Shown piece after piece: positions 16,330-32,693 of a stretch of 64,000 nucleotides of DNA. The position numbers and the translations under genes were made by a program. Below the pieces are notes generated by a model. That model was given only the letters and a program-made list of their open reading frames with translations. It did not search any database and was not told the origin of the DNA. The stretch lies in the NCBI RefSeq assembly GCF_988243305.1, contig NZ_OZ547136.1. One strand, written 5' to 3'. The stretch's first letter is position 1. Every line of letters begins with the position of its first letter.

Positions 16330-16466
16330 ATGGCAAAGCCGATCATCACGCTCAATGGCCTAAAAATCGTCATTATGTTGGGAATGCTGGTCATTATTCT
16401 CTGCGGTATCCGTTTTGCCGCCGAGATCATCGTGCCGTTTATTCTCGCATTATTTATTGCTGTTAT
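16330..16466 (+). pseudogene. tqsA: 5' fragment of the AI-2 exporter gene tqsA (first ~46 codons), interrupted by the island; the frame runs on into island sequence and stops at 16492-16494
   Basis: Encodes [45 protein letters not shown], then diverges; the rest of the gene resumes at 31796. Confidence 0.8.
16458..16466. repeat. Left copy of 9-bp direct repeat TGCTGTTAT at the island/host junction (putative att core or target duplication)
   Basis: Identical 9-mer at 31787-31795; both lie exactly where tqsA reading frame is broken and resumed. Confidence 0.65.
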
Positions 16467-17231
16467 ATATAACTTATTTCACATAACACGTTGATTTAAT
16501 TAAATAATTTTCACCGCAAAAAGTGCCAAAAATCGCAAAATGACTACACCAGTGACTACACCGTTCGGTGCACTGTATGAAACAACGTGGAACAAATAGA
16601 CACAAGAAATATACAGGCGGATCATCTTTCCAGGGGGAAGCGCACCAATTCATGAGGGGCGTTAATGTCGATATGGGGATCCCCACCTACCGGAATTTTT
16701 TTCCGGTTAAACGTTAATCAGGCTGGTGGGCTTTACCTGTTCGGTAGGTGTTATGATTATCGTAATACCTTTCCCCCAATGGGGTAAAAGCATCAACCGT
16801 AACGAAAGTCGTTATGGTTGCCACTGATACCCCAAATTTGGGTATCACGAGTAAGACCCAAAATCTGGGTGTTACTCTTACTACCCAAACTACGGGTAGT
16901 TTCCGTAGTTTCATGGTCGAGTTGCAGATCTGCAACTCCCCCATTAACCACAGGCGAATTTCCGCCTTCGGTCATTCCTTAATCATCTGCGTAATCATAA
17001 TGATTATTCAGCAAGCGCAATTTTGCACTTTGCTTAAAGTTCAGCGAGTTACCGCGCCGACTTCCTCAAATTGAGGTTTCCGAAAATATCAGCGGGTTAG
17101 CGATTAAGCTGATCATTAATTAAACTGCGAAAATTTCGTAGTTTGTGACTGTCTTTCAGGCAGCTTGTTAACAGTCCTCAGAAGCGAGGGATGTAGCCAC
17201 CCATTTTTGGTCCGTCGGGAATATCAACCAG

Positions 17232-17513
17232 TTACCGCCGCAACCGCTCCGGCTTCTTCCAGTGGTACGTTATTTTCTCCTTCTCCCGATACATCTCCAC
17301 GCGGCGACGGTAGGCCAGCAACTCAAGAACTCTGGTTCGTATGTTGCGCATATCCACGCCATTAAGTTCTATACCATCACGGCGCATCACCTCAGCAACA
17401 ACACGCGCATAGTTTTCGGCTGTCACGCTGTCCGGCTGCGTGGCCTGTTCGTCAGCCTGCTGGCTGATTCCGGCAACGCGGCGGATTAATCCCGTTATTT
17501 CGGCTTCTGTCAT
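17232..17513 (-). CDS. Hypothetical protein, last gene of the packaging operon
   Basis: 93-aa ORF immediately downstream of the large terminase on the same strand; no recognisable motif. Confidence 0.4.
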   Translation of the reverse strand: MTEAEITGLIRRVAGISQQADEQATQPDSVTAENYARVVAEVMRRDGIELNGVDMRNIRTRVLELLAYRRRVEMYREKEKITYHWKKPERLRR

Positions 17514-17526
17514 GCTGCTGACCTCA

Positions 17527-19188
17527 TTACACCCCGCTAAATTCTTCCAGTTTCTGGCGGTGGCTGTCGCTTATATCAAAAGCAAAATCCTCATGCTCTG
17601 CCTGGAATGTACCAAACGCCATCAGCGCCGCCACGCTCGGGTCTATCTTGTTCGGTGATTTTTTCTTGTTCGGCTTGATATTGGCGTTCGCGTCACTCTG
17701 CATCACGACGTTACTCATCGACCAGGACAACACCGGATCGCCACGATGCACAATCACCCTGCGGTTAACAAAAACTTCGAACGATTTCGCCGCCGGACTG
17801 AATCTGAGGTAGGTTTGCGGGAACGGCTCCACCTCAAAACCTGCCCCCTGTAATTGCGTTCTGAGATGCGTGGCGTTCCACGTATCAAAGCCCACCAGCC
17901 TGATATTAAATTTCTCCGCGTCCTGCATGATGTCATCTCTGATCCGGTCGTAATCAATGCAGTCGCCAGGCGTTGTGCGTATCCAGCCTGCTTTAGCCCA
18001 CTGACGATAGATGGCGCGGTTTTTATTGGCGGGGTTCTGTAGCTGAAATTCCGGCAGATAGTGACGGGAAACCAGCATAATGGTTTTACCGACCGGAAAG
18101 GCATAGCACACGCTGGAAATATCGCTGGTTGATGATAAGTCCAGCCCCGCGTAACACTCCTGGCCGTGTAAATCTTCCTCCGTGAACGTTCCGGCACACT
18201 CAGCCCATGCGCCGTTACCCATCCACGGGGTAGCCCCCAGGCACCAGATATTAAATCGCTTTGTCATCATCTCCACCCACTGCGACGGAATACCCCGCGC
18301 TTTCTGGATGGTTGAGGCCAGTTTTTCACGATCCACGGAAACATCAATATTAGGGTTCGCCTTTATCCACATCGCCGGATCATCAACCTCGTTTTCGTCG
18401 TCCAGTTCGTAAATCAGTACAAAAATTGAATCGTTGACCTCTTCGCCGTCCAGGATCTGGCAGCAATAATCATAGTGCTGCTTACAGGCTGAAACGACGT
18501 TACTGCCTGATGTGGTAATAGCAAATAACAGCCCTTCGGGACGTGCGCCCATCCCCAGCTCAAGCGCGGAATAAACGCCGTTATCGGGGTGCAAGTGGTA
18601 TTCGTCCACGATGGAAAGGCTGGGGTTTGTTCCCTCGATGGTTGCCGCTTTTGCTGCCAGCGGCTTTAACAGGCTGTTGCTTTTCGGGTGTATCACCTTA
18701 TGCGCCTGAATATTCACCCGCCTGCGTAACGGTCGGGATAAAAGGCACATCTGACGCGCATCATCAAAGACGATCCGCGCCTGGTCACGGCTCACCGCTG
18801 CGGTGTAAATATCCTGCTGACCGTTCTCCATAATCAGAAACCAGTTAGCCAGAATCGCGGCGGTCGTGGATTTCGCATTTTTGCGCGGCACTTCGATAAA
18901 GGCGCTCGTGTATTTGCGCCGTCCGGTGGCCTTAACCTTAAAGCCGAGGATGCACGCAAAGGCGAACTGCTGCCACGGCTCCAGCTCAATGGGTCTGCCA
19001 CGCATCGGCCCTTTTACGTGCGGGCACACCCTGGAAAAGGCAATAAACCGCTCCACAACCTCACGATCGAACGTGTAAAGGGGGCTTTCAAGGTCCGAAA
19101 AGTACCGTTTAACGGCCTGTTTCAGCCGTTTACAGGCCGGAATTTTGCCCGTTTTTACGTCTTCTGCGTACTTATTCCAGGCGGTCAA
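17527..19188 (-). CDS. Phage terminase large subunit
   Basis: 553-aa ORF with ATPase N-terminal region and nuclease C-terminal region typical of Terminase_1-type TerL; follows TerS. Confidence 0.85.
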   Translation of the reverse strand: MTAWNKYAEDVKTGKIPACKRLKQAVKRYFSDLESPLYTFDREVVERFIAFSRVCPHVKGPMRGRPIELEPWQQFAFACILGFKVKATGRRKYTSAFIEVPRKNAKSTTAAILANWFLIMENGQQDIYTAAVSRDQARIVFDDARQMCLLSRPLRRRVNIQAHKVIHPKSNSLLKPLAAKAATIEGTNPSLSIVDEYHLHPDNGVYSALELGMGARPEGLLFAITTSGSNVVSACKQHYDYCCQILDGEEVNDSIFVLIYELDDENEVDDPAMWIKANPNIDVSVDREKLASTIQKARGIPSQWVEMMTKRFNIWCLGATPWMGNGAWAECAGTFTEEDLHGQECYAGLDLSSTSDISSVCYAFPVGKTIMLVSRHYLPEFQLQNPANKNRAIYRQWAKAGWIRTTPGDCIDYDRIRDDIMQDAEKFNIRLVGFDTWNATHLRTQLQGAGFEVEPFPQTYLRFSPAAKSFEVFVNRRVIVHRGDPVLSWSMSNVVMQSDANANIKPNKKKSPNKIDPSVAALMAFGTFQAEHEDFAFDISDSHRQKLEEFSGV

Positions 19189-19528
19189 GCTCGTCCTCTT
19201 CTTCTGTTTCCGGTGGATTTTTACGGCGGCTTATCGGGTCAAAACCGAGCAAGGAGGCCATTTTTATCATCACCCTTTCAGCGTCGGATTTTGCGCTTAA
19301 TGCGGGGTTTCTGCTCTCGCCGCCCTGACTGTTAACAATGCTGAACCCGCGCGCCGCAAGGTCTGCAACGGCTTTCCGGTAAATGGAGTAGTTGACACAA
19401 TACAGTTCCAGATTGCTCCAGTCGGCGGGGGTCAGGTCTCCCCGTTCCGCAAGCTGCCGCGATTTTTCCCGCCACTGCTTCACGGCGATGTCATCCAGGT
19501 AGGCGGGGGCTTTCGGTGGTCTTGCCAT
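19172..19528 (-). CDS. Phage terminase small subunit (P27-family-like)
   Basis: 118-aa ORF with acidic C-terminus, immediately upstream of and overlapping TerL; family assignment from recall. Confidence 0.7.
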   Translation of the reverse strand: MARPPKAPAYLDDIAVKQWREKSRQLAERGDLTPADWSNLELYCVNYSIYRKAVADLAARGFSIVNSQGGESRNPALSAKSDAERVMIKMASLLGFDPISRRKNPPETEEEDELDRLE

Positions 19529-19817
19529 ACTTATTTTTTCGCCAGATTATTTTTCAAAAAATTCCCGTGCATAAAAATTTGAGGAGGCGTTCGGTGCCCG
19601 GCGGGGTCGGGTTTGTCCTGAAAACGCCCCCCACCCCGTCATACAGCCTCATCAGCGATTGCGGAAACATTCCATAACCTCGCGGTCACGGTCGGTTAAT
19701 CGCTTCGCTGTGATGCGTTCTGCGCGTCCTGACGCTTTATCTTTATGCCCTGTTTCCTGTGTCTTCCATGCGTCACGCTGCCTTATAAGTCCACGGATAA
19801 GGCGGTTTTGTTCCCGC
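19529..19817. other. Candidate cos/packaging-site region between HNH endonuclease and TerS
   Basis: 289-bp intergenic gap with G+C-rich tracts (GGTGCCCGGCGGGGTCGGG, CGCCCCCCACCCCG); location inferred by analogy with HK97-type HNH-dependent cos phages. Confidence 0.3.
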
Positions 19818-20258
19818 TCATTCATCAGCGTCATACATCCAGTTATTGCGGTTAGCGGACCGTTCTTCCTCTTCACGAAATCCACCTGCGGCACGCTTGC
19901 TTTTTGTTGCCGGATCAAGCCATTTCGTTTTCTGGTTATGACACGCCTGACACAATGGCTGATGGTTCCATTCGGGCCAGAAGAGAACATCATCGCCGCC
20001 ATCGATGGGGATAATGTGATCCACCACCACGGCGGGCGTATATATCCCCTTCTCAAGGCATCGCACGCATAACGGGTTTTTACTCAGATACATGGCGCGG
20101 TATTTGTCCCACTGTCTGGAGTACCCACGCGCGCGGCGGTGTCCTCGTCTGGCATCCTCTGCACGCCATGCCGCCCGCCTGTGCTCCTCACACTTACCGG
20201 ACTTAACGCGCCTGTTACAGCCTGGTTCTGTACATCGTCTTAATGGTTGCCACGGCAT
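19818..20258 (-). CDS. HNH endonuclease
   Basis: Cys-rich N-terminus (CTEPGCNRR...CEEH) and VVDHIIP...NHQPLCQACHNQKT HNH motif; sits immediately upstream of terS. Confidence 0.8.
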   Translation of the reverse strand: MPWQPLRRCTEPGCNRRVKSGKCEEHRRAAWRAEDARRGHRRARGYSRQWDKYRAMYLSKNPLCVRCLEKGIYTPAVVVDHIIPIDGGDDVLFWPEWNHQPLCQACHNQKTKWLDPATKSKRAAGGFREEEERSANRNNWMYDADE

Positions 20259-20554
20259 CAGTACACCCCCACATCACGGTAAGCCGTCCAGAGTGCGCCT
20301 ATCGTCATGGGTACGCGCGTTTTTGCGTTATCCGCGACAATCTGGCGATTTTCATACAGGTGAGCGATAAACATCATGCAGCCAATCTTTATGGCTGGCG
20401 TGAACTCCAGCCCGTCATCAAAGCGCCTGCCTATGTGTATCTGGCACGCCTCAAGCGATGCGGCAATGTATCCGCTGATTAACTGGTCTTCATCGTCGCC
20501 ATCGATGCGGCAATGGAGTTTCACTTCTTCCAGGGTGATAAGTTCTTCTGTCAT
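20258..20554 (-). CDS. Phage gp6-like head-tail connector protein
   Basis: 98-aa ORF MTEELITLEEVKLHCRIDGDDEDQLISGYIAAS... resembling the gp6-like connector family; within the head module. Confidence 0.6.
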   Translation of the reverse strand: MTEELITLEEVKLHCRIDGDDEDQLISGYIAASLEACQIHIGRRFDDGLEFTPAIKIGCMMFIAHLYENRQIVADNAKTRVPMTIGALWTAYRDVGVY

Positions 20555-20889
20555 TTTTCCGCGCCCTCACGACAAAGAATTTCAAGGCGTGTCCTGGCGG
20601 CATCCGGCAACGGTTGCCCGATGATATTCAGTACACGCCCCGCCAGCGGCCCTGTATTGACCTTTATCCGACTGGTGGCGTTGATGTCCTTCCGGTAGCG
20701 TATCCATATCCTTACCGTTCCAGTCGCCAGCTCTGCACCTGATGAAATGGCCTCCTTGCTGCTGATCATGTTCACGCTTGCCCAGAGTGTGTGACCGTCC
20801 ACCCACGTTTCGAGTATTTCGCCGGTTATATCCCTGGTCTGTTTCAGGGTCTGAATCGTTACCCTGTCACGCAGTCGCCCTATGTTCAT
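20551..20889 (-). CDS. Phage head closure / head-tail joining protein
   Basis: Start taken at MNIGRLRDRVTIQ, overlapping the portal stop by 4 nt; resembles head-tail joining family. Confidence 0.6.
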   Translation of the reverse strand: MNIGRLRDRVTIQTLKQTRDITGEILETWVDGHTLWASVNMISSKEAISSGAELATGTVRIWIRYRKDINATSRIKVNTGPLAGRVLNIIGQPLPDAARTRLEILCREGAEK

Positions 20890-22097
20890 TCCGGTTTTTC
20901 TCCCTCGCTGATTTTTACTTCCTGTTTCCATGCCTGGCTGAACTCATCACCACCATCACGCGGGGACAGCCCTTCACGTTCGCGGGCTTCGTTCGGGCAC
21001 ATAACGCCGGATTTGATGCCGCGTTCATAGGTGGCAAAGCGTTCGCCAGGTGTGGCCCGTAACAGGTCCGCGCTGTCAAACTCCACCTGATACCGGATAC
21101 CAGGTACAGGCGAGGCCACCAGCAGGGCGTTTTTTATCTGCTGCTCAAAGTTCGCCAGCCACGGGCGCATCGTCATGGTGAGAAATGCGCGGCTTGCCTC
21201 GCTGAAGTTGCTGTAGGTGCTGTTGCTGTATTCCTGCAAAAAAATCGGCGAGACGTTGAACATTCGGGCGATGTCTTCAATGGTGAAGCGACGGGAGGCC
21301 AGCCATTCGGCATCCTGATTACTCATGCCCAGCTGCTGATAGCTCATCCCCCCTTCAAGGATGGGCGTTTTTCCGGCGTTTCTGGCCCCTTTGTAGCGTT
21401 CCAGTGCGGCTAATGCCTGTTTGCCCTTCACGCCGTCCAGCCATTCGCCTGACGTGATAACCCCTGCCGCCATCATGCCATCACGCATCACGCTCGCGCC
21501 GTGGCGTTGTTGGGCCAGCCCAAGCCCCAGCGATTCGCGGCAGATGGTTACAGGTGAGCGCCCCATAAAACCGTCATCCGTGGAGTAACGAAGGTGGAGA
21601 ACCTCCCACGGTAAATAGTTGCGGGTGTTTCCGGTGTAGGCGTCAGTGATGCAGTAGCGCCAGTTATGATCACCTGTCTGCTCCACGTTCACCGACTGCG
21701 GCGGGTAAGGATGTAAAGCCACCGGAAAACCATCACGCCCCCACTGAATCACCGCATAAGCATTACCGTTTAACAGGCAGTGGCGGATCATCATTCGCTT
21801 AAACTGGTAGGGAGTCTGCCACGCGTTCGGGCGCTCGTTGAGGATGTGATCGACCGGATGAGAATCAAGCCACTCGCGGGCCTCCTTCCCCTTCTCATTG
21901 CGTACCAGGTACAGGTAACACGGCATGGTAGCCACCGCCTCAGAGATGACCGTCACGGCGTTCATGACGGCGGGCAGTGATTCCGCTGTCCCCGATGATA
22001 CGTACTCACCCGCCCCCGTGTTCGATGTGCCAGCCAGCGCCATAAACTCATCAAGCGTCATGCTGCGCTGCTCTTTTTTTCTTCTGAAAGGCCACAT
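20886..22097 (-). CDS. Phage portal protein (HK97 family)
   Basis: 403-aa ORF immediately downstream of the prohead protease; composition and size typical of HK97-type portals. Confidence 0.8.
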   Translation of the reverse strand: MWPFRRKKEQRSMTLDEFMALAGTSNTGAGEYVSSGTAESLPAVMNAVTVISEAVATMPCYLYLVRNEKGKEAREWLDSHPVDHILNERPNAWQTPYQFKRMMIRHCLLNGNAYAVIQWGRDGFPVALHPYPPQSVNVEQTGDHNWRYCITDAYTGNTRNYLPWEVLHLRYSTDDGFMGRSPVTICRESLGLGLAQQRHGASVMRDGMMAAGVITSGEWLDGVKGKQALAALERYKGARNAGKTPILEGGMSYQQLGMSNQDAEWLASRRFTIEDIARMFNVSPIFLQEYSNSTYSNFSEASRAFLTMTMRPWLANFEQQIKNALLVASPVPGIRYQVEFDSADLLRATPGERFATYERGIKSGVMCPNEAREREGLSPRDGGDEFSQAWKQEVKISEGEKPE

Positions 22098-22098
22098 A

Positions 22099-22671
22099 TC
22101 ACACCCCCGCTAAATCCACCCACCAGCGGCGATTATCCGCACGCGGCATTTTTTCGGGGTGCTGCTCATACAGGGAACGGCGGGCCAGCTCCACGCCGGA
22201 ATCGGGGTAAGCCGGTACCGATGTAACGGTAATTTCGTACAGTTCCGCCACCAGCACGGTGCGCACGCATGGATCTGTTGTGGTATCCCATACATCCTTA
22301 CGGGAGCGAAAGCCAAAGCTCATCCCCGAGATGTCCCCACGCTTAACCAGTTCGATAACGTCGCGCCCTGTACTGGTATCCGGTGGGGTCAGTTCAAAGC
22401 GTAACCCTGTTTCGTCCTCTTCCAGTTTCAGCGTGCCGGAACGGGTGCGCCCCAGTAACATGCTGTGGTCATGCTCATACAGGCCGCGAACGTCATTACC
22501 CGCCGCAAGCCACTCAGTAAACGCCCCCCGCTGGAATTTTTCGTAAAACTCCCCCCATAGCAGTTCTGAAAGCTTATCCCAGCGAACAACGTAGCCCGTC
22601 AGCGTACCGGCTCCGCTGGTAGTGATTTCCGATGACCGGATTTCCATACTCTTCATAATTTTTTCACCCAT
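22099..22671 (-). CDS. HK97-family prohead maturation protease
   Basis: 190-aa ORF between major capsid and portal genes; sequence resembles the S78-type prohead protease family. Confidence 0.75.
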   Translation of the reverse strand: MGEKIMKSMEIRSSEITTSGAGTLTGYVVRWDKLSELLWGEFYEKFQRGAFTEWLAAGNDVRGLYEHDHSMLLGRTRSGTLKLEEDETGLRFELTPPDTSTGRDVIELVKRGDISGMSFGFRSRKDVWDTTTDPCVRTVLVAELYEITVTSVPAYPDSGVELARRSLYEQHPEKMPRADNRRWWVDLAGV

Positions 22672-22710
22672 AAAACACTAAAGGGGCTTTTAAGCCCCTT
22701 CTGTATGCTG

Positions 22711-23868
22711 TTAATCGTCGTCCTGTGGCAGTTCCAGAATCTTGATCGCGTTCGAATCCACCACGCCACCGCCTAAATATTTCTGCGTGAAAATTTTGAT
22801 GAAGCCCGGCTCTGTGAGGTTGTCCGGTCTGGTGCGAACACCTGTTTCGTGATCAACAATGTAGTAACCGCGTTTGAAGTCACCCAGGGCAATAACGTTA
22901 TCCGGCATAAACTCCAGATATTCGACCGGAAGGCCCAGTAACGTATCAGGATCACCCGCCTGTAAACGGTCGCGCCAGATGTAATCACCGTTCGCGTTCT
23001 TCACCTTCTGAAGTTTTGCCGCCGTCGTGGAGTTAACCACCCAGACCGCGTTTTTGCGGTATTTTTTACGTAATGCAAATTTCAGGTCGATCAGCGGGTC
23101 CGCAGATGTCCACGCCAGAGATTCGGAAGGTTTAATTACCTGCAACGTACCAAAATCACGCTCTTTGTCGTTCTTCTCTGCACGGGGTACGGATAAAAAA
23201 CCTTTTGCTTTTTTGTCACCGTCGCCCACAACCAGATCGCTTTCTTCGGTTTCCGTGAAGGTGTCGCCAATCTCGCCCGTCAGCCATGAAAGGATGTCCA
23301 CATCGGAAAAATCCACGATTTCCTGTGTGGTGCGCGGGTACGCATAGACCGGATACAGCTTAATGCTCACCTCGTTAATCTGCGGGGTGCTGGTCTGTTC
23401 GCGTGTCTTACCCTCTTCACCGTGGTTAACGGTCGCACCGCCAGCGGAAACAAGCTGCTTAAACTCGTTGCTGCTGATTTTCTTCACGGTACAGATGCGG
23501 CGCATGGTGGACTCATCCGCCAGCATTCGCATGATTTCGGTGTTCAGTTCGGGGATAACGGTATAACCACCATCAGCGGGAACGCCTGTACTTAATGCGC
23601 GGGTTTCACCTGTCAGAATGTAGTTGCGTAGTTCTGCGGGGTCAGTGGTCTGGCTGCTTTTACCTGGCTTGCTGCGCTCTTCGTCTGCAATGGCTTCAAG
23701 GCGGGAAATGTCTTTATCGAGGGATTCAGCTTTAGCGCGTAATTCGTCAAATTTTGCGCCCTCAGCATCGTTAAGACTGCGGTTTTCTTTTTCCGCGTTC
23801 TCCAGCATGTCGCGCATCTGATTTTTAATGGCGGTTTTCTGCTGGCGTAATTCGATTATTCTCGGCAT
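22711..23868 (-). CDS. HK97-fold major capsid protein with N-terminal coiled-coil (scaffold-like delta) domain
   Basis: Start taken at the ATG for MPRIIELRQQKT; the track ORF extends to a TTG at 23913; N-terminal charged coiled-coil followed by a capsid-like body. Confidence 0.8.
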   Translation of the reverse strand: MPRIIELRQQKTAIKNQMRDMLENAEKENRSLNDAEGAKFDELRAKAESLDKDISRLEAIADEERSKPGKSSQTTDPAELRNYILTGETRALSTGVPADGGYTVIPELNTEIMRMLADESTMRRICTVKKISSNEFKQLVSAGGATVNHGEEGKTREQTSTPQINEVSIKLYPVYAYPRTTQEIVDFSDVDILSWLTGEIGDTFTETEESDLVVGDGDKKAKGFLSVPRAEKNDKERDFGTLQVIKPSESLAWTSADPLIDLKFALRKKYRKNAVWVVNSTTAAKLQKVKNANGDYIWRDRLQAGDPDTLLGLPVEYLEFMPDNVIALGDFKRGYYIVDHETGVRTRPDNLTEPGFIKIFTQKYLGGGVVDSNAIKILELPQDDD

Positions 23869-23906
23869 AAAAAAAAGTCCTGGGGTTAAGTAAGGAACTC
23901 CAGGAC
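23869..23906 (-). terminator. Stem-loop plus U8 run immediately abutting the capsid gene start codon
   Basis: Minus strand reads GTCCTGGAGTTCCTTACTTAACCCCAGGAC followed by TTTTTTTT then ATG. Confidence 0.5.
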
Positions 23907-24149: not shown

Positions 24150-24169
24150 TGTATGTGCTGTATGGGTGC

Positions 24170-25212: not shown

Positions 25213-25490
25213 AATTCCACCTCTCCGGTTTTAACGTTGATGGTTGTTACCTGTTCCGCTTCGGCAATCTCCCGTTCTGTCAGCGTGGCAAAGTTTGCCG
25301 CCGCCGTGGTCATGAATGCGCTTATCAGGTCGGGATGTTCCTTCGCGTATCCTTCCCGCGTGTGGCGGTCTATCGTTCTGATTGCCACCTTTAAAGCGTG
25401 CTCAGTCATGTCTAACGCTTTATATTTTGGCTCTGTTCTGTCTCTGCGTTTTTGGGTCATTTCTCGCAACCTCTCACTTTTTCGCCTCAC
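25209..25490 (-). CDS. Hypothetical basic protein upstream of ssb
   Basis: 93-aa ORF overlapping ssb start by 4 nt; 5' end overlaps the iteron array so true start may be internal. Confidence 0.4.
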   Translation of the reverse strand: MRRKSERLREMTQKRRDRTEPKYKALDMTEHALKVAIRTIDRHTREGYAKEHPDLISAFMTTAAANFATLTEREIAEAEQVTTINVKTGEVEL

Positions 25491-25662
25491 TTTTTCAAGC
25501 GTCTCACTTCGTCGCAGTTGGGATTTTCGGTTTTTCTATGTGTGTGTTTCATAAGTATTTTTTTACCCCTCACTTTTGAGGATGTATACAGGTCGAAAAG
25601 TGAGGGAGAGCGGGCTAATTTTGGCCCTCTTTCTATCCCCCTCGCTTTTGCTCCTCACTTTT
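25470..25662. repeat. Iteron array (CTCACTTTT, about 7 copies including one inverted); putative replication origin
   Basis: Copies at 25473, 25486, 25502 (imperfect), 25569, 25596 (inverted), 25640 (imperfect), 25654; immediately 3' of the replication ATPase gene. Confidence 0.6.
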
Positions 25663-27061
25663 ATAGCGGCGCTACATCATCCCCATCGATACGAATAACC
25701 CCATCTTTTTCCAGCTTGTACAGCCAGCGCCGGAAGTTTTTCATTTCATACCCCAGTTTTTTCATGTCATCACGTAACAGCGGGATCGTGCACTTGTCGC
25801 CGTTCTGTGTGCGTGAACGGATGCACCCCCATAGCGCGGTATGGTTTTCCGTCTTGTTCCCTGCCTCCTCGATGCGCTCCAGTTCAACAGGAGGGCGCGG
25901 ATCATCCACCACTACCAGCGACGTGATTAATTCACCGTCAGCGTCGGTAAAAAGCTCCACCACGCGTAAGTCATATGCGGCTTCTTTGAGTTCCTCCGCG
26001 TCCTTCATTTTGGTGCATGAGATAACCAGCGCTTCGCTTCCTGCGTCCTCCCTGCGTATCCGGTATTCAGCATCCAGCGAAGCACGAAATGCACTGGAAC
26101 CGCGCGCGCCTTTCGTCTCATCCTTGCCGGAATGGTGAACCACCAGCACCGTGGCCCCTGTGCGTCGTTTCAGTTCGTCACAACCACGGATAAACGCCCC
26201 CATATCACGGGAATCATTTTCATCATTCCCACCAAAGCAACGCGCCAGCGTATCCAGAATAATCATGCGTACAGGTTTACCCGTTTCCCGCTCCACCTGA
26301 CGGGCAGCGATAACCATTTCATCAACATCAAGCGGGGCAGCCGGAAAGATGGGGCGGTTTACCAGATACAGATTTTTCACCTGCTCATCGTGCACAACCT
26401 CCCAGGCTTTTACACGACGCGGAACACCTATACCGCCTTCACCAACCACATAGAGAACCGCACCATGTGCAACCCTGCGGCCTCCCCACTGGCGACCAGT
26501 GGCAACATGGCACGCCCACGATCCGGCAAGGAATGATTTATAGGACCCGCTAGCCCCGTATATGCTGCATAGCGATACCGCCGGAATAATCCCCTTAACC
26601 ACGTAATCCAGTTGCGTGTCGTATCCGGTAGATCCAACGCTCATCGGTAGCGTGGTTTTTCGCTGGTGGTTTTTTTCTTCCACCGGCTCTTTCCCGCGCA
26701 CCCGTTCCAGGTATTCGCGCCAGTTCTCCCGCATATGGCTGTGCATCCCTTCGGGGTAATAATTCGCATCAGTTACACCCGCCGCCGCCAGCTTGTGCGC
26801 AATGGCATTAATATTTGATGGCCTGATGTGGCCTGCCTTGTACAGCCGGACACAATAGCGCCCCTCGTCGATGATTCTCAGGTCTGCCAGTTCATCCAGT
26901 TGATCATCAGCCAGCACAACGGGAGGCACATTATCGCCAGCCAGTCGCCCGTCCTGTTCCTGCCACTGTTTCGCATGTGCCCAGGCATCACTACCCGCAA
27001 AAATAATGACTTCGGTCATCTTGTCGTAAGGCTGTTTTTTTAAGTTCGGTGCGCTTTTCAT
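25661..27061 (-). CDS. Replication initiator with RecA-fold ATPase domain (satellite Pri-Rep-like)
   Basis: 466-aa ORF with Walker A-like YGASGSYKS and downstream ILDTL Walker B-like segment. Confidence 0.65.
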   Translation of the reverse strand: MKSAPNLKKQPYDKMTEVIIFAGSDAWAHAKQWQEQDGRLAGDNVPPVVLADDQLDELADLRIIDEGRYCVRLYKAGHIRPSNINAIAHKLAAAGVTDANYYPEGMHSHMRENWREYLERVRGKEPVEEKNHQRKTTLPMSVGSTGYDTQLDYVVKGIIPAVSLCSIYGASGSYKSFLAGSWACHVATGRQWGGRRVAHGAVLYVVGEGGIGVPRRVKAWEVVHDEQVKNLYLVNRPIFPAAPLDVDEMVIAARQVERETGKPVRMIILDTLARCFGGNDENDSRDMGAFIRGCDELKRRTGATVLVVHHSGKDETKGARGSSAFRASLDAEYRIRREDAGSEALVISCTKMKDAEELKEAAYDLRVVELFTDADGELITSLVVVDDPRPPVELERIEEAGNKTENHTALWGCIRSRTQNGDKCTIPLLRDDMKKLGYEMKNFRRWLYKLEKDGVIRIDGDDVAPL

Positions 27062-27357
27062 TTCTTGCCCCTGAATCCGTTAATCATGGTTTTCAGCTTC
27101 TGGATGTTTGCCCGTGCCCTGGCGTTGCTGGTGGGCACGTTATGCGGCGCGGTCTGTACCAGAGAAAAATCACGCCGGAACTGATAAACAGGCATCACGC
27201 AATCATATTCGTAACCTTCACGGCGGTAGGTTACGCGCCGTTCTTCCACGCCCTTAATCATTACCGTGCCGCCGTACTGGTCGCGGTAAATATCACCGCG
27301 CGTAAATTTAGGGTGAGTGTTGCCACTGGCAGTTAAGCCAGAATATTTAAGTTTCAT
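27058..27357 (-). CDS. Hypothetical protein, translationally coupled to the replication gene
   Basis: 99-aa ORF whose stop overlaps the replication ATPase start by 4 nt. Confidence 0.45.
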   Translation of the reverse strand: MKLKYSGLTASGNTHPKFTRGDIYRDQYGGTVMIKGVEERRVTYRREGYEYDCVMPVYQFRRDFSLVQTAPHNVPTSNARARANIQKLKTMINGFRGKK

Positions 27358-27362
27358 TATTT

Positions 27363-27596
27363 TTATTCTCCGGTGTGCTGTTCTTTATATCTGTCGTGCA
27401 ATAGATCTATTTCTTGCAGTTCCATTATTACAGGCTCAAGAAGCGTTATTAATGCCGTGGCAATTCTTGATTTTTGTTTGTCGCGTTCATTGTCGCCAAG
27501 TGTTTCAAGCCATATGCGCAATATTTCCAGCATGTTTTCACTGTGAGAAAGTGCAAGAAATACGCGGTCTATTGTTTCGTGGTAAATATCACGCAT
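27363..27596 (-). CDS. Hypothetical small protein
   Basis: 77-aa ORF tightly packed between neighbouring ORFs on the same strand. Confidence 0.4.
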   Translation of the reverse strand: MRDIYHETIDRVFLALSHSENMLEILRIWLETLGDNERDKQKSRIATALITLLEPVIMELQEIDLLHDRYKEQHTGE

Positions 27597-27597
27597 A

Positions 27598-28034
27598 TTA
27601 ATCCCCGTCCGTCGTTTTTCTTAAAATAACCTCTGTCACGAAATCAGCATAATCGGCGGCGATATTCAGTACATCAAGCCCCGTTGATTTATATTCTCTC
27701 GTGGAAAGTAAGAAAAAAGCCGCTCTAATAAGTTCTGGCATTGACGAAAGCGCATCAGCCGCATCATCAGGAACGCCGGAAAATTCCTGTTTCAGGGAAT
27801 TAAAACGATCATCACGCATAACCCCCCCCCATTTTCACAATCAGCAACAAGAATATTTTTAGCGTCATTCAGCGACCGCGTTGCGATGTATCGGATACAT
27901 TCCAGGGCGAACTGTGTCCGGTCTTTCTGTTCTTCTCCCTGCGCAAGCTCTGCAGTGCATTCAATATCGATAAGCGCGTGCATCAGCGTAGTGAGCGCGG
28001 CGGCTGCTGCGTCCGGTGTGGTTTTATTGCACAT
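27598..28034 (-). pseudogene. Gene split into two frames by a G9 homopolymer tract (27822-27830); frameshifted or phase-variable
   Basis: Upstream part starts at ATG 28034 with AGGAGG RBS and ends 27792; downstream part 27598..27819 begins 3 nt after the tract in the +1 frame. Confidence 0.55.
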
Positions 28035-28314
28035 GGCACACCTCCTGACGAATACGGGCGGCGAATACAGCAACACAACCGGACGGGCAACGGCTACGCG
28101 CTTCGCGTTCCGTCCAGGCGGTTACGTGGATGATTTGAGATTCTCCGGCACTTAGTGCCAGAAAACGCCACACAAAGGCCGTTTGTGTGTGTATAAGGCG
28201 TGGTATATGATTTACGGCAACCATAACGGCTCCTAGTTTACGTTGTTGGTTAGACGCCCCGTATGTGTTCCCAGCACTGCGGGGCGTTGATTTTTGTGTA
28301 ATGGCAAGTACAAT

Positions 28315-28358
28315 GGTAATTACCATGTAGGTATAGTAATGAAGGGTAATTACCATGT
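28315..28358. promoter_or_regulatory. Two copies of 14-bp repeat GGTAATTACCATGT, each containing the perfect palindrome GGTAATTACC; putative operator
   Basis: Copies at 28315-28328 and 28345-28358, 30 bp apart; second copy overlaps the ATG of the small plus-strand gene; region lies between divergent gene sets. Confidence 0.55.
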
Positions 28359-28528
28359 CAACACCATTAGAAAAACGTTCGCCTCCATACCAAATGCGAT
28401 TACCGGAAGACTTCAGAGCGCAGCTAGAAGAAGCAGCTAAGGCCGATGGCGACACATCTTTAGCCACTTGGATTAAACGCGTTCTCCGCAAAGAATTACA
28501 GCAACGCGGCATAGAGCCAAAAGGTTGA
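28355..28528 (+). CDS. Small putative DNA-binding protein (Arc/MetJ-type ribbon-helix-helix-like), 57 aa
   Basis: ATG 28355 to TGA 28526-28528: MSTPLEKRSPPYQMRLPEDFRAQLEEAAKADGDTSLATWIKRVLRKELQQRGIEPKG; one of only two plus-strand genes in the island. Confidence 0.5.
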   Translation: MSTPLEKRSPPYQMRLPEDFRAQLEEAAKADGDTSLATWIKRVLRKELQQRGIEPKG

Positions 28529-28549
28529 ATTTCAGAAGGAGATAAAATA

Positions 28550-28702
28550 ATGAACTGGCTGTTACATACCCTCCCAGGTCGCATTCTCATTGCACTAATT
28601 ATTTTATGGATTTTGTACCAATTCGGTTTTTTCGATTCGCTTTGGAAGCCTGACTGTTCCGTTAACCCTGGCGATGTACTGAAAGGCTGTAAAAATGGCT
28701 GA
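28550..28702 (+). CDS. Small hydrophobic peptide (50 aa), predicted membrane-associated
   Basis: AGGAG RBS 8 nt upstream of ATG 28550; MNWLLHTLPGRILIALIILWILYQFGFF... single hydrophobic segment. Confidence 0.45.
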   Translation: MNWLLHTLPGRILIALIILWILYQFGFFDSLWKPDCSVNPGDVLKGCKNG

Positions 28703-29057
28703 TCAGGGTTACTCCCTGTAATGCCTTTAACTGGCCCTCTTAAAGAGGGTTGGTTATCTTCGCAGCTCTCTACGTTTTTCGTCGGAACCTCTGAACCTAA
28801 GCAGTGTTGATGTTCAGGAGAACCCGAATACTGTTCGTGTTCGTTGCTCGCCAATTCTCGCGTTTCGCGATAATCAAAATGATTCAATGGGTTGAGATGT
28901 CCGTACGTTAAACGTACGCGGTTAATTTGTACATGCGAATTTCGTCGGCTCAAATTCTGCGCAACCCTGCTTGAGTTATGCAAATAGCACGCGGCTAACT
29001 CACAAGGATTTGAGCGCCCCCAAACGGGGGAGCGCAAAATTTTAGGCATAAGACGCA

Positions 29058-29771
29058 TCAGCGAATCTCCAACACTGACGATGAAGTGATCAGGCTGGCG
29101 AACGCATCCATACGGCGGGCAACCTCACGCACCGCATCGCCTGGACTCATGTCATTACGCACCGCCTCATTAAAGGCCGCCTGTTCGATTTTCTGCATCA
29201 CTACCAACAGCCCCAATTGCTGTTCGTCTGCGGTACCGCGTTCACCATCAGACAAACCAGCCACGCGGTTTTCAGCGCGGGCCAGATTGATGTAATGGTG
29301 CCGTTGTGCGCCCAGAGCTTTTAATCTGTCGCGGCTTTCGTGATAGCCAGGCAGGTACTCACGGCGGATAGGTTCTGCGGCGCGGCGCTTAGTGAATGCC
29401 TTCGTAACATCCAGTTTGAACTGGTTAATACGCTCAGGATCACGCCCTCGGGTGATACGCAGCAGATAGTCGAGCTGCGGCTCATTCAGCAGATAACTAA
29501 TCTCAGGACGCCCACGCTTTCGGCCGGATTTTCCCGATTTCAAATCGGTTAATTCCTTGAGTGACTGACGAGGCAGTGATCCCAGCTCGCGCAATCTGCT
29601 CTGGTGCGATTTAATCGTCGCGCTTAAGCTTTCATGTTGTATTCCGGCTCGCTCTGAAATAACGCGGGAATCGATACGCGGCTCCGATTTGTGATTAATT
29701 AAAATATCGCTCTGGCTGGCTTCAGGGCGAACGAATCCCCGCCCACGTTCTGGCGTATATTCAATCTTCAT
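29058..29771 (-). CDS. Hypothetical protein, possible phage-type regulatory protein
   Basis: 237-aa ORF between AlpA and the divergent control region; basic central segment GRKRGRP; no confident family assignment. Confidence 0.4.
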   Translation of the reverse strand: MKIEYTPERGRGFVRPEASQSDILINHKSEPRIDSRVISERAGIQHESLSATIKSHQSRLRELGSLPRQSLKELTDLKSGKSGRKRGRPEISYLLNEPQLDYLLRITRGRDPERINQFKLDVTKAFTKRRAAEPIRREYLPGYHESRDRLKALGAQRHHYINLARAENRVAGLSDGERGTADEQQLGLLVVMQKIEQAAFNEAVRNDMSPGDAVREVARRMDAFASLITSSSVLEIR

Positions 29772-29828
29772 GGTTATAGCTCTGTGTTCAGATGATTGAT
29801 GTGTGGCGGCTGCGTGCCGCCAGCGTGA

Positions 29829-30017
29829 TTAATGAACTGCCTTGCAGCTATCCTTCCAGGCCAGAACCTCGGATAAAGACCAGCCAACGGAACGACCGCC
29901 AAGTTTACGACGTGATGGGAATTGTCCGGCCTTTTCCAGGCGGTAGCGACACGTACGGCTAAGGCCGGTTAGTTTTTCGCATTCTTTTTCACGTATAAAC
30001 CGATCAGTGCTTAACAC
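29829..30017 (-). CDS. alpA: AlpA-family phage transcriptional regulator / excisionase-like HTH protein
   Basis: 62-aa ORF with AlpA-like signature ...LTGLSRTCRYRLEKAGQFPSRRKLGGRSVGW...; adjacent to integrase. Confidence 0.7.
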   Translation of the reverse strand: MLSTDRFIREKECEKLTGLSRTCRYRLEKAGQFPSRRKLGGRSVGWSLSEVLAWKDSCKAVH

Positions 30018-30381
30018 TATTGCCCCCTTTCGTTTCTTAAAGAGTCATCAGGTGTCTTATTGTGTCGTATTGTTCCCGCTAGAGTGATAAATGGCAAATA
30101 CTGAGGATGTATGATTTACAGAAAATGAAACAGTAAGAATAAAATCTTTTAAATTCATGTTAATACAAAGGCATAAAATATTGTTTCATGCCTTTTTTCT
30201 CGCTCTTTAAAGAGTGATTCGCTAGTGTATAAAAAACCAGTAACGCATTAAAAATCAGCTACTTATAAATCCGTACGCTTTTTCGCCTCTTGTTCGTAGT
30301 TGTTCCACATTGTTGCTCATTGTTGCACGTTGTATCTGTTCGCATATACAGTATGCGCATACTGAAAAAACACGAAAAAAA

Positions 30382-31611
30382 TTATTTTCTTCTGGCTACT
30401 GGTAGCGTGGTTACGTTTTCATGTGTTCCCGCCAGTATCCCTAACCGCTCCGTCCACATATCCAGCGCATTGCGTTTAGCATCCAGATAACGGGAATGAT
30501 TATAAACTCGCTGCATTCCTGGCATCTGGTGGCCTGTAAGCTGCTCCACGACATGCGGATCAACGCCTAAATCGTTCAGCATGGTTGTAAAGGTGCGCCG
30601 GATGTCATGCAGTGACCAGTGAGGATGATTAAGCCTCCTGTGCGCTAATCTTCCATACTGCGATACGCTGGCCTCCTGTTTCACTTCCCCCAGCAATAAG
30701 CCCGTGTGCCTGTTCTGCTCCACCAGCTGCGTGACGAACGGCAGGATCGCTTCCGGTATGGGCCGGAATATTGCGACCTTCGTTTTGCTGTGCTCCTTCG
30801 GAACGGTCCATAGCATTTCCGTAAAATCCCACTCCCCGATCTCCGATAACCTCAGTTCTACCGTTCTGGCTCCGAAGACAATCAGGAGGCGGATTAACGC
30901 GACGTAGTAAGGGGAGAATATTTTTTTGTCCAGTGCCTGCAATAATTCGCCAAGTTCTTTGTTACTTAAGACACGTTCGCTTATATCCGGTTTTTTCCCA
31001 ACGTCCGCCACGTTCAGATCGTCCAGAACGTTGCTGATTGCATAGCGCCGCCTACGGCAGAACTTAAGCGCCTGTTTGCACGCCTGTAGCACGAATCCGG
31101 CAGTAACAGGCGTTCGCTTTGCCACCTGGTCAAAACAGGCCAGCCAGTGCCGTAGCTCGCATTTATCCAGCGGCATAGCACCAATCTGCTGTATTACGTG
31201 ATTATTAAGTCGCCTTTTCAGGGCGATATAATCCACGCGGTTTTCCTTTACGTAATACTCAAGCCAGTAGGTGAGCGCATCGCCAACCGTTACGGGCTTT
31301 AACGCTTCCTGTACGGTGTAATTCATCTCATGACGTGGATTTTTCCCCTCAGCCAGCCATGTGCGACACTGTGCGGCTTTTTCCCTGGCTGCTTTCAGGC
31401 TCAGATCAGGATAACTTCCCAGCTTAATGCGTTCGGGTCGTGTCTCCCTTCCCGTTCCGGCCCTGTATGTGAAATACCAGGTCAATTTCCCTGATGTTAA
31501 ATATTTCACGCTCAGGTTTCCGCCATCACTATAAAACGTGTTTTTCTCCGCTGGCTTACCATGAAGTTTCCTTAGCAAGGTATCGCTCAGTTTGTTCATT
31601 GCTCTGCTCAC
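30382..31611 (-). CDS. int: Tyrosine site-specific integrase (P4-type)
   Basis: 409-aa ORF; C-terminal catalytic region with HDIRRTF (H-x-x-R) and a downstream tyrosine; located at the island right end. Confidence 0.85.
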   Translation of the reverse strand: MSRAMNKLSDTLLRKLHGKPAEKNTFYSDGGNLSVKYLTSGKLTWYFTYRAGTGRETRPERIKLGSYPDLSLKAAREKAAQCRTWLAEGKNPRHEMNYTVQEALKPVTVGDALTYWLEYYVKENRVDYIALKRRLNNHVIQQIGAMPLDKCELRHWLACFDQVAKRTPVTAGFVLQACKQALKFCRRRRYAISNVLDDLNVADVGKKPDISERVLSNKELGELLQALDKKIFSPYYVALIRLLIVFGARTVELRLSEIGEWDFTEMLWTVPKEHSKTKVAIFRPIPEAILPFVTQLVEQNRHTGLLLGEVKQEASVSQYGRLAHRRLNHPHWSLHDIRRTFTTMLNDLGVDPHVVEQLTGHQMPGMQRVYNHSRYLDAKRNALDMWTERLGILAGTHENVTTLPVARRK

Positions 31612-31786
31612 GTTTTACCCCCTCTTTACGAAAAAGTGACTACACCAGTGACTACACCGATCGTTGCACAAAGGGCTACAACGTGAAACAAGCTGGAACA
31701 AGGAAAATCACAAATCTGTTGATAATCAAAAACATAATGCACAGCCTGAAACATTATGAAACAGCAAAAAACACTAAATGATAAAA

Positions 31787-31795
31787 TGCTGTTAT
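31787..31795. repeat. Right copy of 9-bp direct repeat TGCTGTTAT at the island/host junction
   Basis: Identical to 16458-16466; the tqsA reading frame resumes here ([11 protein letters not shown]...). Confidence 0.65.
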
Positions 31796-32693
31796 TCTTA
31801 ACCCGCTGGTGCAACACATGGTCCGCTGGCGAGTGCCGCGTGTACTGGCGGTGTCGATTTTGATGACCATCATCGTGATGGCGATGGTGTTGCTGTTAGC
31901 TTATCTGGGTTCCGCACTCAACGAGTTGACGCGGACGTTACCGCAATATCGCAACTCTATTATGACGCCGCTGCAAGCGCTTGAACCGTTGTTGCAACGC
32001 GTAGGGATTGACGTCTCAGTTGACCAACTGGCGCATTACATTGATCCGAACGCGGCGATGACGTTGCTCACCAACTTATTGACGCAGTTATCTAATGCCA
32101 TGTCATCAATCTTTTTATTGCTGCTGACGGTGCTGTTTATGCTGCTCGAAGTGCCACAATTGCCCGGAAAATTTCAGCAAATGATGGCGCGTCCGGTTGA
32201 AGGGATGGCGGCGATTCAGCGTGCGATTGACAGTGTTTCTCATTATCTGGTGCTGAAAACAGCCATCAGCATCATCACCGGCCTGGTCGCCTGGGCGATG
32301 CTCGCCGCACTCGATGTTCGCTTCGCTTTTGTCTGGGGATTGCTGGCCTTTGCGCTTAATTACATCCCGAATATTGGTTCAGTTCTCGCGGCAATCCCCC
32401 CTATCGCTCAGGTATTGGTGTTTAATGGCTTCTACGAAGCGTTGCTGGTGCTGGCGGGATATCTGCTGATTAATCTGGTCTTCGGCAATATTCTGGAGCC
32501 GCGCATCATGGGGCGTGGGCTGGGGCTTTCCACATTGGTGGTATTTCTGTCGTTGATTTTTTGGGGATGGTTGTTAGGACCGGTGGGTATGCTGCTTTCC
32601 GTGCCGTTGACAATTATTGTCAAAATTGCGCTTGAACAAACAGCGGGTGGTCAAAGCATCGCCGTTCTGTTAAGCGATCTCAATAAAGAGTGA
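31796..32693 (+). pseudogene. tqsA: 3' portion of tqsA (AI-2 exporter) separated from its 5' end by the island
   Basis: In-frame continuation [24 protein letters not shown]...; track ORF starts at GTG 31809. Confidence 0.8.

Follow-up and report, generated by a model that had tools for sequence, protein, structure and literature searches.

Interruption of tqsA in E. coli has been described before. The gene stands on the list of those disrupted by prophage integration given by Bobay et al. 2013 (PMC3603311), and Mageeney et al. 2020 (PMC7192596) found three tqsA-interrupting elements with TIGER (Eco282.16.tqsA, Eco33.11.tqsA and Eco557.15.tqsA) and scored disruption of the UPF0118 domain in tqsA as 'yes' in their assay. 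The island analysed here resembles those elements in species, target gene, unrestored UPF0118 disruption, size class (11–16 kb) and tight integrase clade, and the phenomenon is essentially the same. The two papers differ from the present analysis in that the elements are not described there as satellites of the capsid-forming phage-inducible chromosomal island (cf-PICI) type and the cut is not placed on the TqsA structure. The disruption is already published and is annotated in RefSeq, and our analysis adds little that is new. A literature search for tqsA together with PICI found no paper; the cf-PICI paper gives six E. coli attB sites.

The prototype cf-PICI is EcCIEDL933 (Alqurainy et al., bioRxiv 10.1101/2022.09.08.507074), for which the literature shows that a helper phage induces the element and that it is packaged in small capsids of its own making, to which tails of the helper are attached. 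We represented EcCIEDL933 by a ~15.4-kb O157:H7 element (L003) located between phoQ and roxA, equating the two by size, serotype and the description in the paper. This element has the same gene order (int-alpA-regulation-replication-SSB-PerC-capsid-protease-portal-closure-adaptor-HNH-TerS-TerL), aligns to 75% of the island at 95.3% identity and has conserved attP arms. However, it occupies a harmless intergenic site between phoQ and roxA whereas our island lies inside tqsA, its integrase is 91% identical, the attachment core and arm repeats are swapped, and its replication gene encodes a DUF927 primase in place of a RepA/AAA_25 helicase. EcCICFT073, a classical Gram-negative PICI (Fillol-Salom et al. 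2018, PMC6092414), shares the integrase (91%), alpA, SSB, PerC and Icd-like genes, the attP arms and the unidirectional gene order, but it measures 11.4 kb, carries only a capsid and a decoration gene with no portal, protease or large terminase, and also resides at the phoQ-roxA site. A third comparison is with established instances of active lysogeny, or regulated gene integrity, among them the prophages in Listeria comK and E. coli mlrA (summarised in PMC7192596). Like our island, these are site-specific elements in a conserved host gene that bring no replacement sequence and whose excision restores the gene; unlike them, the island is a helper-dependent satellite, and regulated excision with a phenotype is only hypothetical for tqsA.

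The split of tqsA and its attachment site

In the window, i.e., the whole 64-kb stretch of DNA that was analysed, tqsA lies in two pieces around an insertion:

16330..16494, plus strand: tqsA 5' fragment, residues 1–46 native (16330–16466), then eight island-encoded codons (YNLFHITR) and TGA
16458..16466, plus strand: attL core TGCTGTTAT, equal to tqsA codons 43–46; junction identical in five genomes
16467..31786, minus strand: inserted capsid-forming PICI (phage satellite), 15,320 bp, all genes on the minus strand and opposite to tqsA (Pfam and PHROGs)
31787..31795, plus strand: attR core TGCTGTTAT; junction identical in five genomes
31788..32693, plus strand: tqsA 3' fragment, residues 44–344, stop codon at 32691–32693

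The position that the first-pass annotation had given for the insertion in tqsA proved correct in ORF, junction and tblastn checks. Searching the whole 64-kb window with TqsA by tblastn returned two pieces only, residues 1–56 (16330–16491) and residues 44–344 (31788–32690). A 5' stub of about 46 native residues that runs into island sequence and a stop had likewise been described, and we find exactly this: native sequence extends from the ATG at 16330 over the first 137 nt of the ORF to 16466, codon 46 reads ATA instead of ATT (Ile either way), and the stub stops with the TGA at 16492–16494. The frame of the 3' part is open from 31788 (AVILNPLV...), with an in-frame TAA just 5' of it at 31782–31784.

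Both junctions carry the 9-bp direct repeat TGCTGTTAT (16458–16466 and 31787–31795). Removal in silico of one core and 15,320 bp yields a 344-aa ORF that is identical at 344/344 positions to chain A of PDB 7NB6, and this full-length identity to E. coli TqsA places the interrupted gene in the TqsA (AI-2E, UPF0118) family; tqsA is also the RefSeq name of the fragments. The same core at both ends, an integrase gene beside one end (176 bp from attR) and the precise rebuilding of attB, which is 100% identical to empty sites, mark a site-specific tyrosine-integrase element. In every carrier examined (PCN033, PV15-279, 14EC001, RM10386), PGAP/RefSeq lists both tqsA halves as pseudogenes, the 5' piece as 'missing C-terminus' and the 3' piece as 'missing N-terminus'. 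Where tqsA meets the island there is an att core used site-specifically, and the break did not arise at random.

Further features flank the cores on the island side:

16537..16612, plus strand: P' arm of attP, tandem ATGACTACACC/AGTGACTACACC (16540–16562) and GTGRAACAA-type units (16577–16605)
16613..17231, no strand: non-coding left end of the island, gene-free in the annotation of all relatives
30290..30328, minus strand: alpA–int interval with four 10-bp units of the GTGRAACAA type
31633..31708, plus strand: P arm of attP, two copies of GTGACTACACC (31636–31658) and GTGAAACAAGCTGGAACAA (31683–31701)

The two arms form a direct repeat of 76 nt with 76% identity (16537–16612 vs. 31633–31708), and the arm units are enriched, with seven matches vs. 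0.47 expected. The repeats of the P' arm are probably binding sites for the integrase arm or for AlpA. The first ~350 bp of the non-coding left end are conserved with phoQ-roxA-type islands; by position this segment matches the cos/packaging region of PICIs and may serve that role. Gene-targeting integrative elements mostly bring along a duplicate of the gene end that they displace. The attP of this island holds no copy of the displaced tqsA end, and the gene is therefore left in two parts.

These observations are very probably explained by a cf-PICI that integrated site-specifically in tqsA and split the gene, so that no functional TqsA is made while the island is integrated and excision restores it. 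The 15.3-kb satellite would integrate by means of its own tyrosine integrase, its attP recombining with the 9-bp core TGCTGTTAT in tqsA codons 43–46 and, in bringing no displaced gene end, leaving tqsA split. What is expected to remain is a stub of 54 codons, which covers helix H1, half of H2 and eight foreign residues, and a 3' fragment that has neither a promoter nor the N-terminus, and functional pentameric TqsA is predicted to be absent from the integrated state. Precise excision driven by Int/AlpA, whether spontaneous or induced by a helper phage, would rebuild intact wild-type tqsA. That the gene is split at an att core, that nothing in the island replaces its lost part, that the inserted genes are those of a satellite, that the integrase lineage is dedicated to this site and that the locus is in a derived state can all be read from the DNA itself, and this particular copy of the island is presumably mobile. 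Spontaneous excision of PICIs has been reported, for Gram-negative PICIs by PCR, and a restored tqsA may therefore exist in a minority of cells.

Gene content of the island

An intact satellite of the capsid-forming PICI type makes up the insert. Its assigned features, together with an operator-like site, are as follows:

17232..17513, minus strand: 93-aa conserved protein, function unknown (phrog_1561)
17527..19188, minus strand: terminase large subunit (PF03354 and PF20441)
19172..19528, minus strand: terminase small subunit, P27 family (PF05119)
19818..20258, minus strand: HNH endonuclease (PF01844)
20258..20554, minus strand: head-tail adaptor Ad1 (phrog_40)
20551..20931, minus strand: head closure protein Hc1 (phrog_25); true start probably internal, giving ~112 aa (339 nt by PGAP in relatives)
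20886..22097, minus strand: portal protein (PF04860, E = 7.5e-91)
22099..22671, minus strand: prohead serine protease, S78/HK97 type (PF04586)
22711..23913, minus strand: HK97-fold major capsid protein (PF05065); likely start giving 385 aa (1158 nt by PGAP in relatives)
24091..24109, plus strand: operator-like tandem GTGGAACAA-N4-GAACAA upstream of the capsid operon
24564..24911, minus strand: PerC-family transcriptional activator (phrog_994 and phrog_10396, match from ORF residue 41; 'PerC family' by PGAP in relatives)
24802..25212, minus strand: single-stranded DNA-binding protein (phrog_44)
25661..27061, minus strand: RepA-family helicase (AAA_25) of the replication module (PF13481, E = 2.4e-43)
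29058..29771, minus strand: Rha-like regulatory protein, weak match (PF09669 at 25.8 bits, below the Pfam cut-off of 29.9; phrog_2657)
29829..30017, minus strand: AlpA-family regulator (PF05930, E = 5.4e-17)
30382..31611, minus strand: tyrosine integrase with N-terminal arm-binding domain, tqsA-specific lineage (PF13356 and PF00589)

Integrase, AlpA regulation and replication modules (PF00589/PF13356, PF05930, PF13481 and SSB) follow one another in the conserved cf-PICI order, which is also the module order of annotated relatives. AlpA is a hallmark of Gram-negative PICIs. All eight components expected of a cf-PICI were found by Pfam and PHROGs (8/8), the head and packaging module is complete, and the gene corresponding in length to the replication gene is named 'helicase RepA family protein' in 14EC001. 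Tail or lysis families had no match among the 20 island ORFs scanned with Pfam and PHROGs, a set that excludes the smallest ORFs (27363–28076), and none are annotated in four relative islands, as expected of a cf-PICI, which lacks lysis genes as well as a complete tail module. At 15,320 bp between the cores, the island falls within the size range of ~10–18 kb (10.1101/2025.02.11.637232), and other E. coli cf-PICIs cover 74–89% of it at 95–98% identity. The phage collection held no close phage, the best match being a 16.5-kb Klebsiella 'induced prophage' that covers 24% of the island at 78% identity. An island targeting a tRNA gene was considered and rejected, as no tRNA or tmRNA turned up when the window was scanned in full; an Rfam scan of 15000–34000 at gathering thresholds found no RNA family.

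TqsA in the integrated and excised states

The interruption is reversible, since precise excision restores the gene. This raises the question of whether it acts as a switch, with excision coupling TqsA activity to mobilisation of the satellite, a reading that is compatible with site-specific cf-PICI integration. Mageeney et al. 2020 (PMC7192596) counted tqsA among 19 new candidate cases by the same criteria, and the present locus agrees with these: the domain is disrupted and not restored by attP, and integrases of one tight clade have inserted elements at the same position several times independently, alongside uninterrupted alleles. An integrase lineage is dedicated to the tqsA site, the island looks intact (int, alpA and both att arms), the fragments rebuild an intact gene with 0–2 amino acid changes in all five carriers, and the PCR detection of spontaneous excision in Gram-negative PICIs points the same way. 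Nevertheless, a trigger of excision tied to TqsA function would be conjectural, and induction normally ends with the helper phage lysing the cell, to which a restored tqsA would therefore rarely be of benefit. Intact fragments may simply mean recent insertion, as the differences among carriers are nearly all synonymous host alleles; furthermore, the insertion occurs in only 4.5% of genomes, and Bobay et al. 2013 (PMC3603311) interpreted disrupted loci that are seldom occupied as secondary sites. On balance, we consider a reversible switch unlikely. Also unlikely is that the tqsA-specific integrase lineage was selected because shutting off TqsA benefits the satellite or the host, with excision, spontaneous in a subpopulation or upon helper induction, re-activating the exporter. 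If this were true, AI-2 partitioning, lsr expression, biofilm or motility, and hence contact with helper phages, might be altered, and the island would be a satellite-operated quorum-signal switch and not a cause of tolerated collateral damage.

Whether any TqsA remains in the integrated state can be judged against the cryo-EM structure (PDB 7NB6). Helix H1 spans Thr7–Phe29 and is where the pentamer chiefly holds together at its cytoplasmic face, the horizontal H2 spans Ala31–Trp57 and H3 spans Arg61–Glu109; protomers meet mainly through their N-terminal regions, and each protomer is proposed to be an independent functional unit. The transport elements TMH5-6, HP1 and HP2 all lie within the 3' fragment, from which H1 and most of H2 are absent. 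The earlier description of this fragment as lacking its first transmembrane segment therefore needs restating, the actual loss being these two N-terminal elements. Similarly, the GTG at 31809 (V51), formerly taken for the sole possible start, is indeed the first in-frame start but is followed by ATG 31818 (M54) and ATG 31863 (M69).

An N-terminally truncated TqsA, started at Val51, Met54 or Met69 from transcription reading out of the island, could in principle be usefully active, as in-frame starts are present and the C-terminal transport domain is complete. Shine-Dalgarno (SD) pairing was calculated at +1.5 kcal/mol for GTG 31809 and −2.8 kcal/mol for ATG 31818, compared with −5.7 kcal/mol at the native tqsA start and a background of −1.8 ± 2.4 kcal/mol, and the first two starts thus lack an SD. 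ATG 31863 is preceded by an SD-like GGCGGUG (−6.1 kcal/mol), which makes a shorter product conceivable if a transcript reads out of the island, although a Met69 start would lose, in addition to H1 and H2 with the main inter-protomer contacts, the beginning of H3. In tqsA-site islands, PGAP annotates a plus-strand ORF of 60 aa that ends at 31781 and would, if real, imply plus-strand transcription towards tqsA; however, it is antisense to the 5' end of int and is not called in phoQ-roxA-type islands, and is probably spurious. No sigma-70-like promoter facing the 3' part was found in 31300–32000 by a crude scan, which missed the int promoter too, and promoter scans at both island junctions gave nothing usable. 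A useful truncated TqsA is accordingly quite improbable.

Restoration by an in-frame fusion is rejected because stops lie directly 5' of the 3' part, and tblastn found no TqsA-like replacement N- or C-terminus in the island (E ≥ 2.5). With the cf-PICI in place, probably no protein is made from the 3' fragment and TqsA function would be lost; intact TqsA is almost certainly not made. The proposal of the first-pass annotation that TqsA is lost or truncated is supported: the element is acquired and brings no compensation, no fusion is formed, the scan found no promoter facing the 3' part, and the first two starts have no SD. As an acquired element splits the gene without compensation, the strain can justifiably be called a natural tqsA insertion mutant. 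The step from loss of TqsA to loss of AI-2 export would follow only from published genetics, and any effect of the split on AI-2 export or biofilm is likewise conjectural. In the structure paper, transport activity could not be demonstrated, AI-2 is termed a 'probable substrate', and three E. coli paralogs are listed (YhhT, YdiK and PerM). The physiological consequence may therefore be small.

Integrase lineage and distribution

Integrases at the tqsA site differ by at most five amino acids among five islands and by 35–38 from integrases at the phoQ-roxA site; they are 91% identical to the EcCICFT073/O157-type integrase, whose target is the phoQ-roxA spacer. The 28 fixed differences between the two groups fall in the arm-binding domain (18), the central domain (8) and the catalytic domain (2), a distribution that fits attP, where the core and the arm repeats are both swapped. 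Judged by sequence, the island integrase is a dedicated tqsA-specific sister of the EcCICFT073/O157-type enzyme. The pair offers a clean example of a satellite integrase retargeted from a harmless intergenic site to the interior of a conserved gene, presumably by changes that are limited to its DNA-recognition domains and the corresponding attP segments. The 11-kb classical PICIs that share the ends of the island were considered as tqsA residents and set aside, the two examined (CFT073 and O111:H8 strain 8B) lying between phoQ and roxA.

That the closest characterised integrases (EcCICFT073 and the O157 cf-PICI, 91%) use a harmless intergenic site, and that secondary sites were suggested for such loci by Bobay et al. 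2013 (PMC3603311), could mean that the insertion is a one-off, off-target event of an integrase whose normal target lies elsewhere. This is very improbable and we reject it: the junctions are identical in 245 genomes, the tqsA integrases cluster tightly and apart from the others, with most of the differences in the domains that recognise DNA, and the core and arm repeats of their attP are particular to this group, matching tqsA and not phoQ-roxA.

We surveyed 5,426 complete E. coli genomes, of which 5,169 (~95%) have an empty tqsA attB and 245–246 (~4.5%) contain the island junctions. Carriers are scattered over O26, O103, O55:H7, an O157:H7, porcine ExPEC, and dog and human isolates. This ~4.5% of complete genomes, including many O26, O103 and O55:H7 and an O157:H7, are natural tqsA-null candidates, and the split is relevant to strain comparisons of AI-2 signalling, biofilm or lsr regulation. 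In the five carriers compared, junctions are identical, host tqsA alleles differ by 10–21 nt, nearly all of these differences being synonymous host-lineage alleles, and the fragments rejoin to an intact tqsA in 5/5 cases (0–2 amino acid changes); their islands hold at least three replication modules. An island ancestral at tqsA, which the earlier annotation had named as grounds for refutation, has a negligible probability and is rejected: it is a formal possibility in that excision would leave a perfect gene, but the empty site is the norm, carriers span unrelated serotypes, and the island variants are mosaic, with one near-identical in two divergent hosts. The islands of PV15-279 (O157:H7) and RM10386 (O26) share 99.80% identity from end to end, whereas 17/1035 nt differ between the tqsA genes of the two hosts.

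The split tqsA gene

The E. coli chromosome in the window has the gene order mdtJI - tqsA - pntBA, and tqsA is interrupted by a 15,320-bp capsid-forming phage-inducible chromosomal island (cf-PICI). Native tqsA sequence spans 16330–16466 within an ORF opening at 16330. Codon 46 reads ATA rather than ATT but encodes Ile either way, so the 5' fragment holds 46 native residues and then adds YNLFHITR before a TGA (16492–16494); the first-pass annotation had described this stub and its coordinates correctly. The 3' part is in frame from 31788 (AVILNPLV...) to 32693, with an in-frame TAA (31782–31784) directly 5' of it. No further pieces were found in the whole 64 kb by tblastn with a TqsA query. 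A 9-bp direct repeat, TGCTGTTAT, lies at 16458–16466 and 31787–31795, and removal of one copy with the 15,320 bp between yields a 344-aa ORF identical at 344/344 residues to the TqsA chain of PDB 7NB6. The break falls at a site-specific att core and is not random. The split is confirmed, and as far as gene structure goes the proposed inactivation of tqsA by the insertion is supported.

The 3' part does lack its N-terminus, as proposed, but the loss is not that of a classical first transmembrane segment: it comprises helix H1 (Thr7–Phe29) and most of the horizontal helix H2 (Ala31–Trp57). In the cryo-EM structure (PDB 7NB6), the pentamer's main contact on the cytoplasmic side is H1, and N-terminal regions make up most of the protomer interface. 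GTG 31809 (Val51) had been taken as the sole possible start, but ATG 31818 (Met54) and ATG 31863 (Met69) are also in frame.

A split tqsA is correct yet already known. Bobay et al. 2013 (PMC3603311) included tqsA in their list of conserved E. coli genes that prophages disrupt on integrating, and Mageeney et al. 2020 (PMC7192596) named it in their abstract as a new 'regulated gene integrity' candidate, with three E. coli elements (16, 11 and 15 kb) in which the UPF0118 domain is broken and not restored. The cf-PICI family is also published and is said to use six attB sites in E. coli. Added here are the identity of the sampled tqsA-interrupting elements as cf-PICI satellites, the position of the cut on the cryo-EM structure, population frequencies, and the sequence basis of the integrase's target change.

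Predicted consequences for TqsA and AI-2 export

Functional TqsA is very probably absent while the island is integrated. The island contains no TqsA-like sequence (tblastn, E ≥ 2.5), so attP provides no replacement end, and restoration by in-frame fusion is rejected because stops directly upstream of the 3' part make it impossible. A crude scan of 31300–32000 found no sigma-70-like promoter. Anti-Shine-Dalgarno pairing was +1.5 kcal/mol before GTG 31809 and -2.8 before ATG 31818, compared with -5.7 at the native tqsA start and a background of -1.8 ± 2.4; the only 3' start reaching -6.1 kcal/mol was ATG 31863, within helix H3. H1 and most or all of H2 would be missing from any product of the 3' fragment. 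PGAP calls both tqsA halves pseudogenes in all four annotated carriers. PGAP also calls a 60-aa hypothetical protein (WP_001332680.1; 31599–31781, plus strand) in tqsA-site islands, antisense to the int start and ending 5 bp before the attR core. This ORF is absent from the calls for phoQ-roxA-type islands and is therefore probably spurious; any transcript of it would head towards the tqsA 3' fragment.

In all five carriers the tqsA fragments join into a 344-aa protein that carries 0–2 substitutions and is free of frameshifts and stops; precise excision would therefore leave an intact gene. Spontaneous excision has been reported for Gram-negative PICIs.

Loss of AI-2 export is a putative further consequence of losing TqsA. 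Deletion of tqsA raised intracellular AI-2, lsr expression, biofilm and motility, according to the genetics as summarised in the structure paper; the same paper could not demonstrate transport activity, states that AI-2 'remains a probable substrate', and lists the E. coli paralogs YhhT (46% identical), YdiK and PerM. It is unlikely that the interruption works as a switch by which the satellite controls a quorum-signal exporter.

Distribution and repeated use of the site

Of 5,426 complete E. coli genomes, 5,169 matched a synthetic empty-site query along 80% or more of the query; the left junction was present in 245 and the right junction in 246. Carriers include O26, O103, O55:H7, an O157:H7, the porcine ExPEC PCN033, and dog and human isolates. 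Junctions are identical base for base between the window and four other carriers, their host tqsA alleles lie 10–21 nt apart, and replication modules of at least three kinds occur in the five islands, one of which has an IS1 insertion. Taken together, these sequence comparisons indicate that the island is derived at tqsA, not ancestral, and that the site has been used repeatedly.

PV15-279 (O157:H7) and RM10386 (O26) share a 14,869-bp cf-PICI in tqsA that is 99.80% identical over its full length, whereas the surrounding tqsA differs at 17/1035 nt (1.6%). A near-identical island in divergent tqsA backgrounds points to horizontal spread of one island to the same site and suggests recent inter-lineage transfer among STEC. 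An ancestral island is rejected, given both this pair and the prevalence of the empty site.

The island most closely related to the window's is that of 14EC001 (L005; 89% covered, 98.1% identity). It carries an IS1A between the head closure and portal genes (L005 5897–6594), and this copy is therefore probably packaging-defective and locked in tqsA.

Island genes, integrase and attachment sites

The island's genes are all encoded on the minus strand and are listed below in order from attR.

Gene content of the island
30382–31611, minus: tyrosine integrase with arm-binding domain, nearest attR
29829–30017, minus: AlpA
next after AlpA: Rha-like regulator (weak) and Arc/YlcI-like ORF
between these and the helicase, minus: several small conserved proteins
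25661–27061, minus: RepA/AAA_25 helicase
after the helicase, minus: SSB, PerC-family activator
after the activator, minus: HK97-type major capsid protein, S78 prohead protease, portal
after the portal, minus: head closure protein, head-tail adaptor
after the adaptor, minus: HNH endonuclease, small and large terminase
last gene, attL side, minus: conserved 93-aa protein

For the same element in four other genomes, RefSeq annotation matches this list gene for gene. No tail or lysis genes were found among the scanned island ORFs, and there is no close deposited phage (best match 24% coverage, 78% identity). The composition of a 344-aa ORF at 28024–29058 (minus) is implausible, and an Arc/YlcI-like ORF on the plus strand (28355–28528) overlaps it; the long ORF is probably not a gene, since relatives have Icd-like and YlcI/YnfO genes there. 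The PerC-family activator (24564–24911, minus) could allow a tqsA-site island to alter virulence regulation independently of tqsA; according to the PICI literature, the island-encoded regulator RgdR modulates LEE/type III secretion in E. coli O157. Between the 93-aa protein gene and attL lie ~760 bp of non-coding DNA, likewise non-coding in all relatives. This left end (16613–17231) contains short palindromes (e.g., 16910–16947) and a GGAATATCAACCAGTTACCG-type motif, of which phoQ-type islands have several copies, and is possibly a cos/terminase recognition region.

Islands at the phoQ-roxA site include EcCICFT073, a classical 11-kb PICI between phoQ and roxA, and a ~15.4-kb O157:H7 cf-PICI that fits the description of EcCIEDL933. 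Integrases from this site share 91% identity with that of the window. Among the five tqsA-site integrases at most 5 of 409 residues vary, whereas 35–38 separate them from three phoQ-site integrases; 28 differences are fixed between the groups.

Fixed differences by integrase domain
arm-binding: 18 (19% of positions)
central (core-binding): 8 (7%)
catalytic: 2 (1%)

Between the two types the attP arms share ~95% identity except in two segments. The tandem arm repeat is GTGACTACACC at tqsA (16540–16562 and 31636–31658) vs ATTAACTACACC at phoQ-roxA (the equivalents in comparison loci L002 and L003), and ~45 bp around the core differ, the core being TGCTGTTAT vs AAATATGTCC. The arm repeat co-varies with the 18 arm-binding-domain substitutions, and the ~45 bp round the core are swapped. 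Off-target integration is ruled out by this dedicated integrase group with its own core and arm repeats. The comparison indicates that the integrase lineage exchanged a harmless target between genes for one within tqsA, which makes it a compact, naturally occurring case of integrase retargeting.

The window has seven occurrences of tandem 10-bp units with the pattern GTGRAACAA-N4-GAACAA, where chance would give 0.47, and all fall within the island. Both attP arms contain them, as do the stretch immediately upstream of the capsid operon and the alpA-int interval.

GTGRAACAA-type units
16577–16605
24091–24109
30290–30328, minus
31683–31701

They look like the operator of one DNA-binding protein, the candidates being either AlpA, in a dual role in activation and excision, or the arm domain of the integrase.
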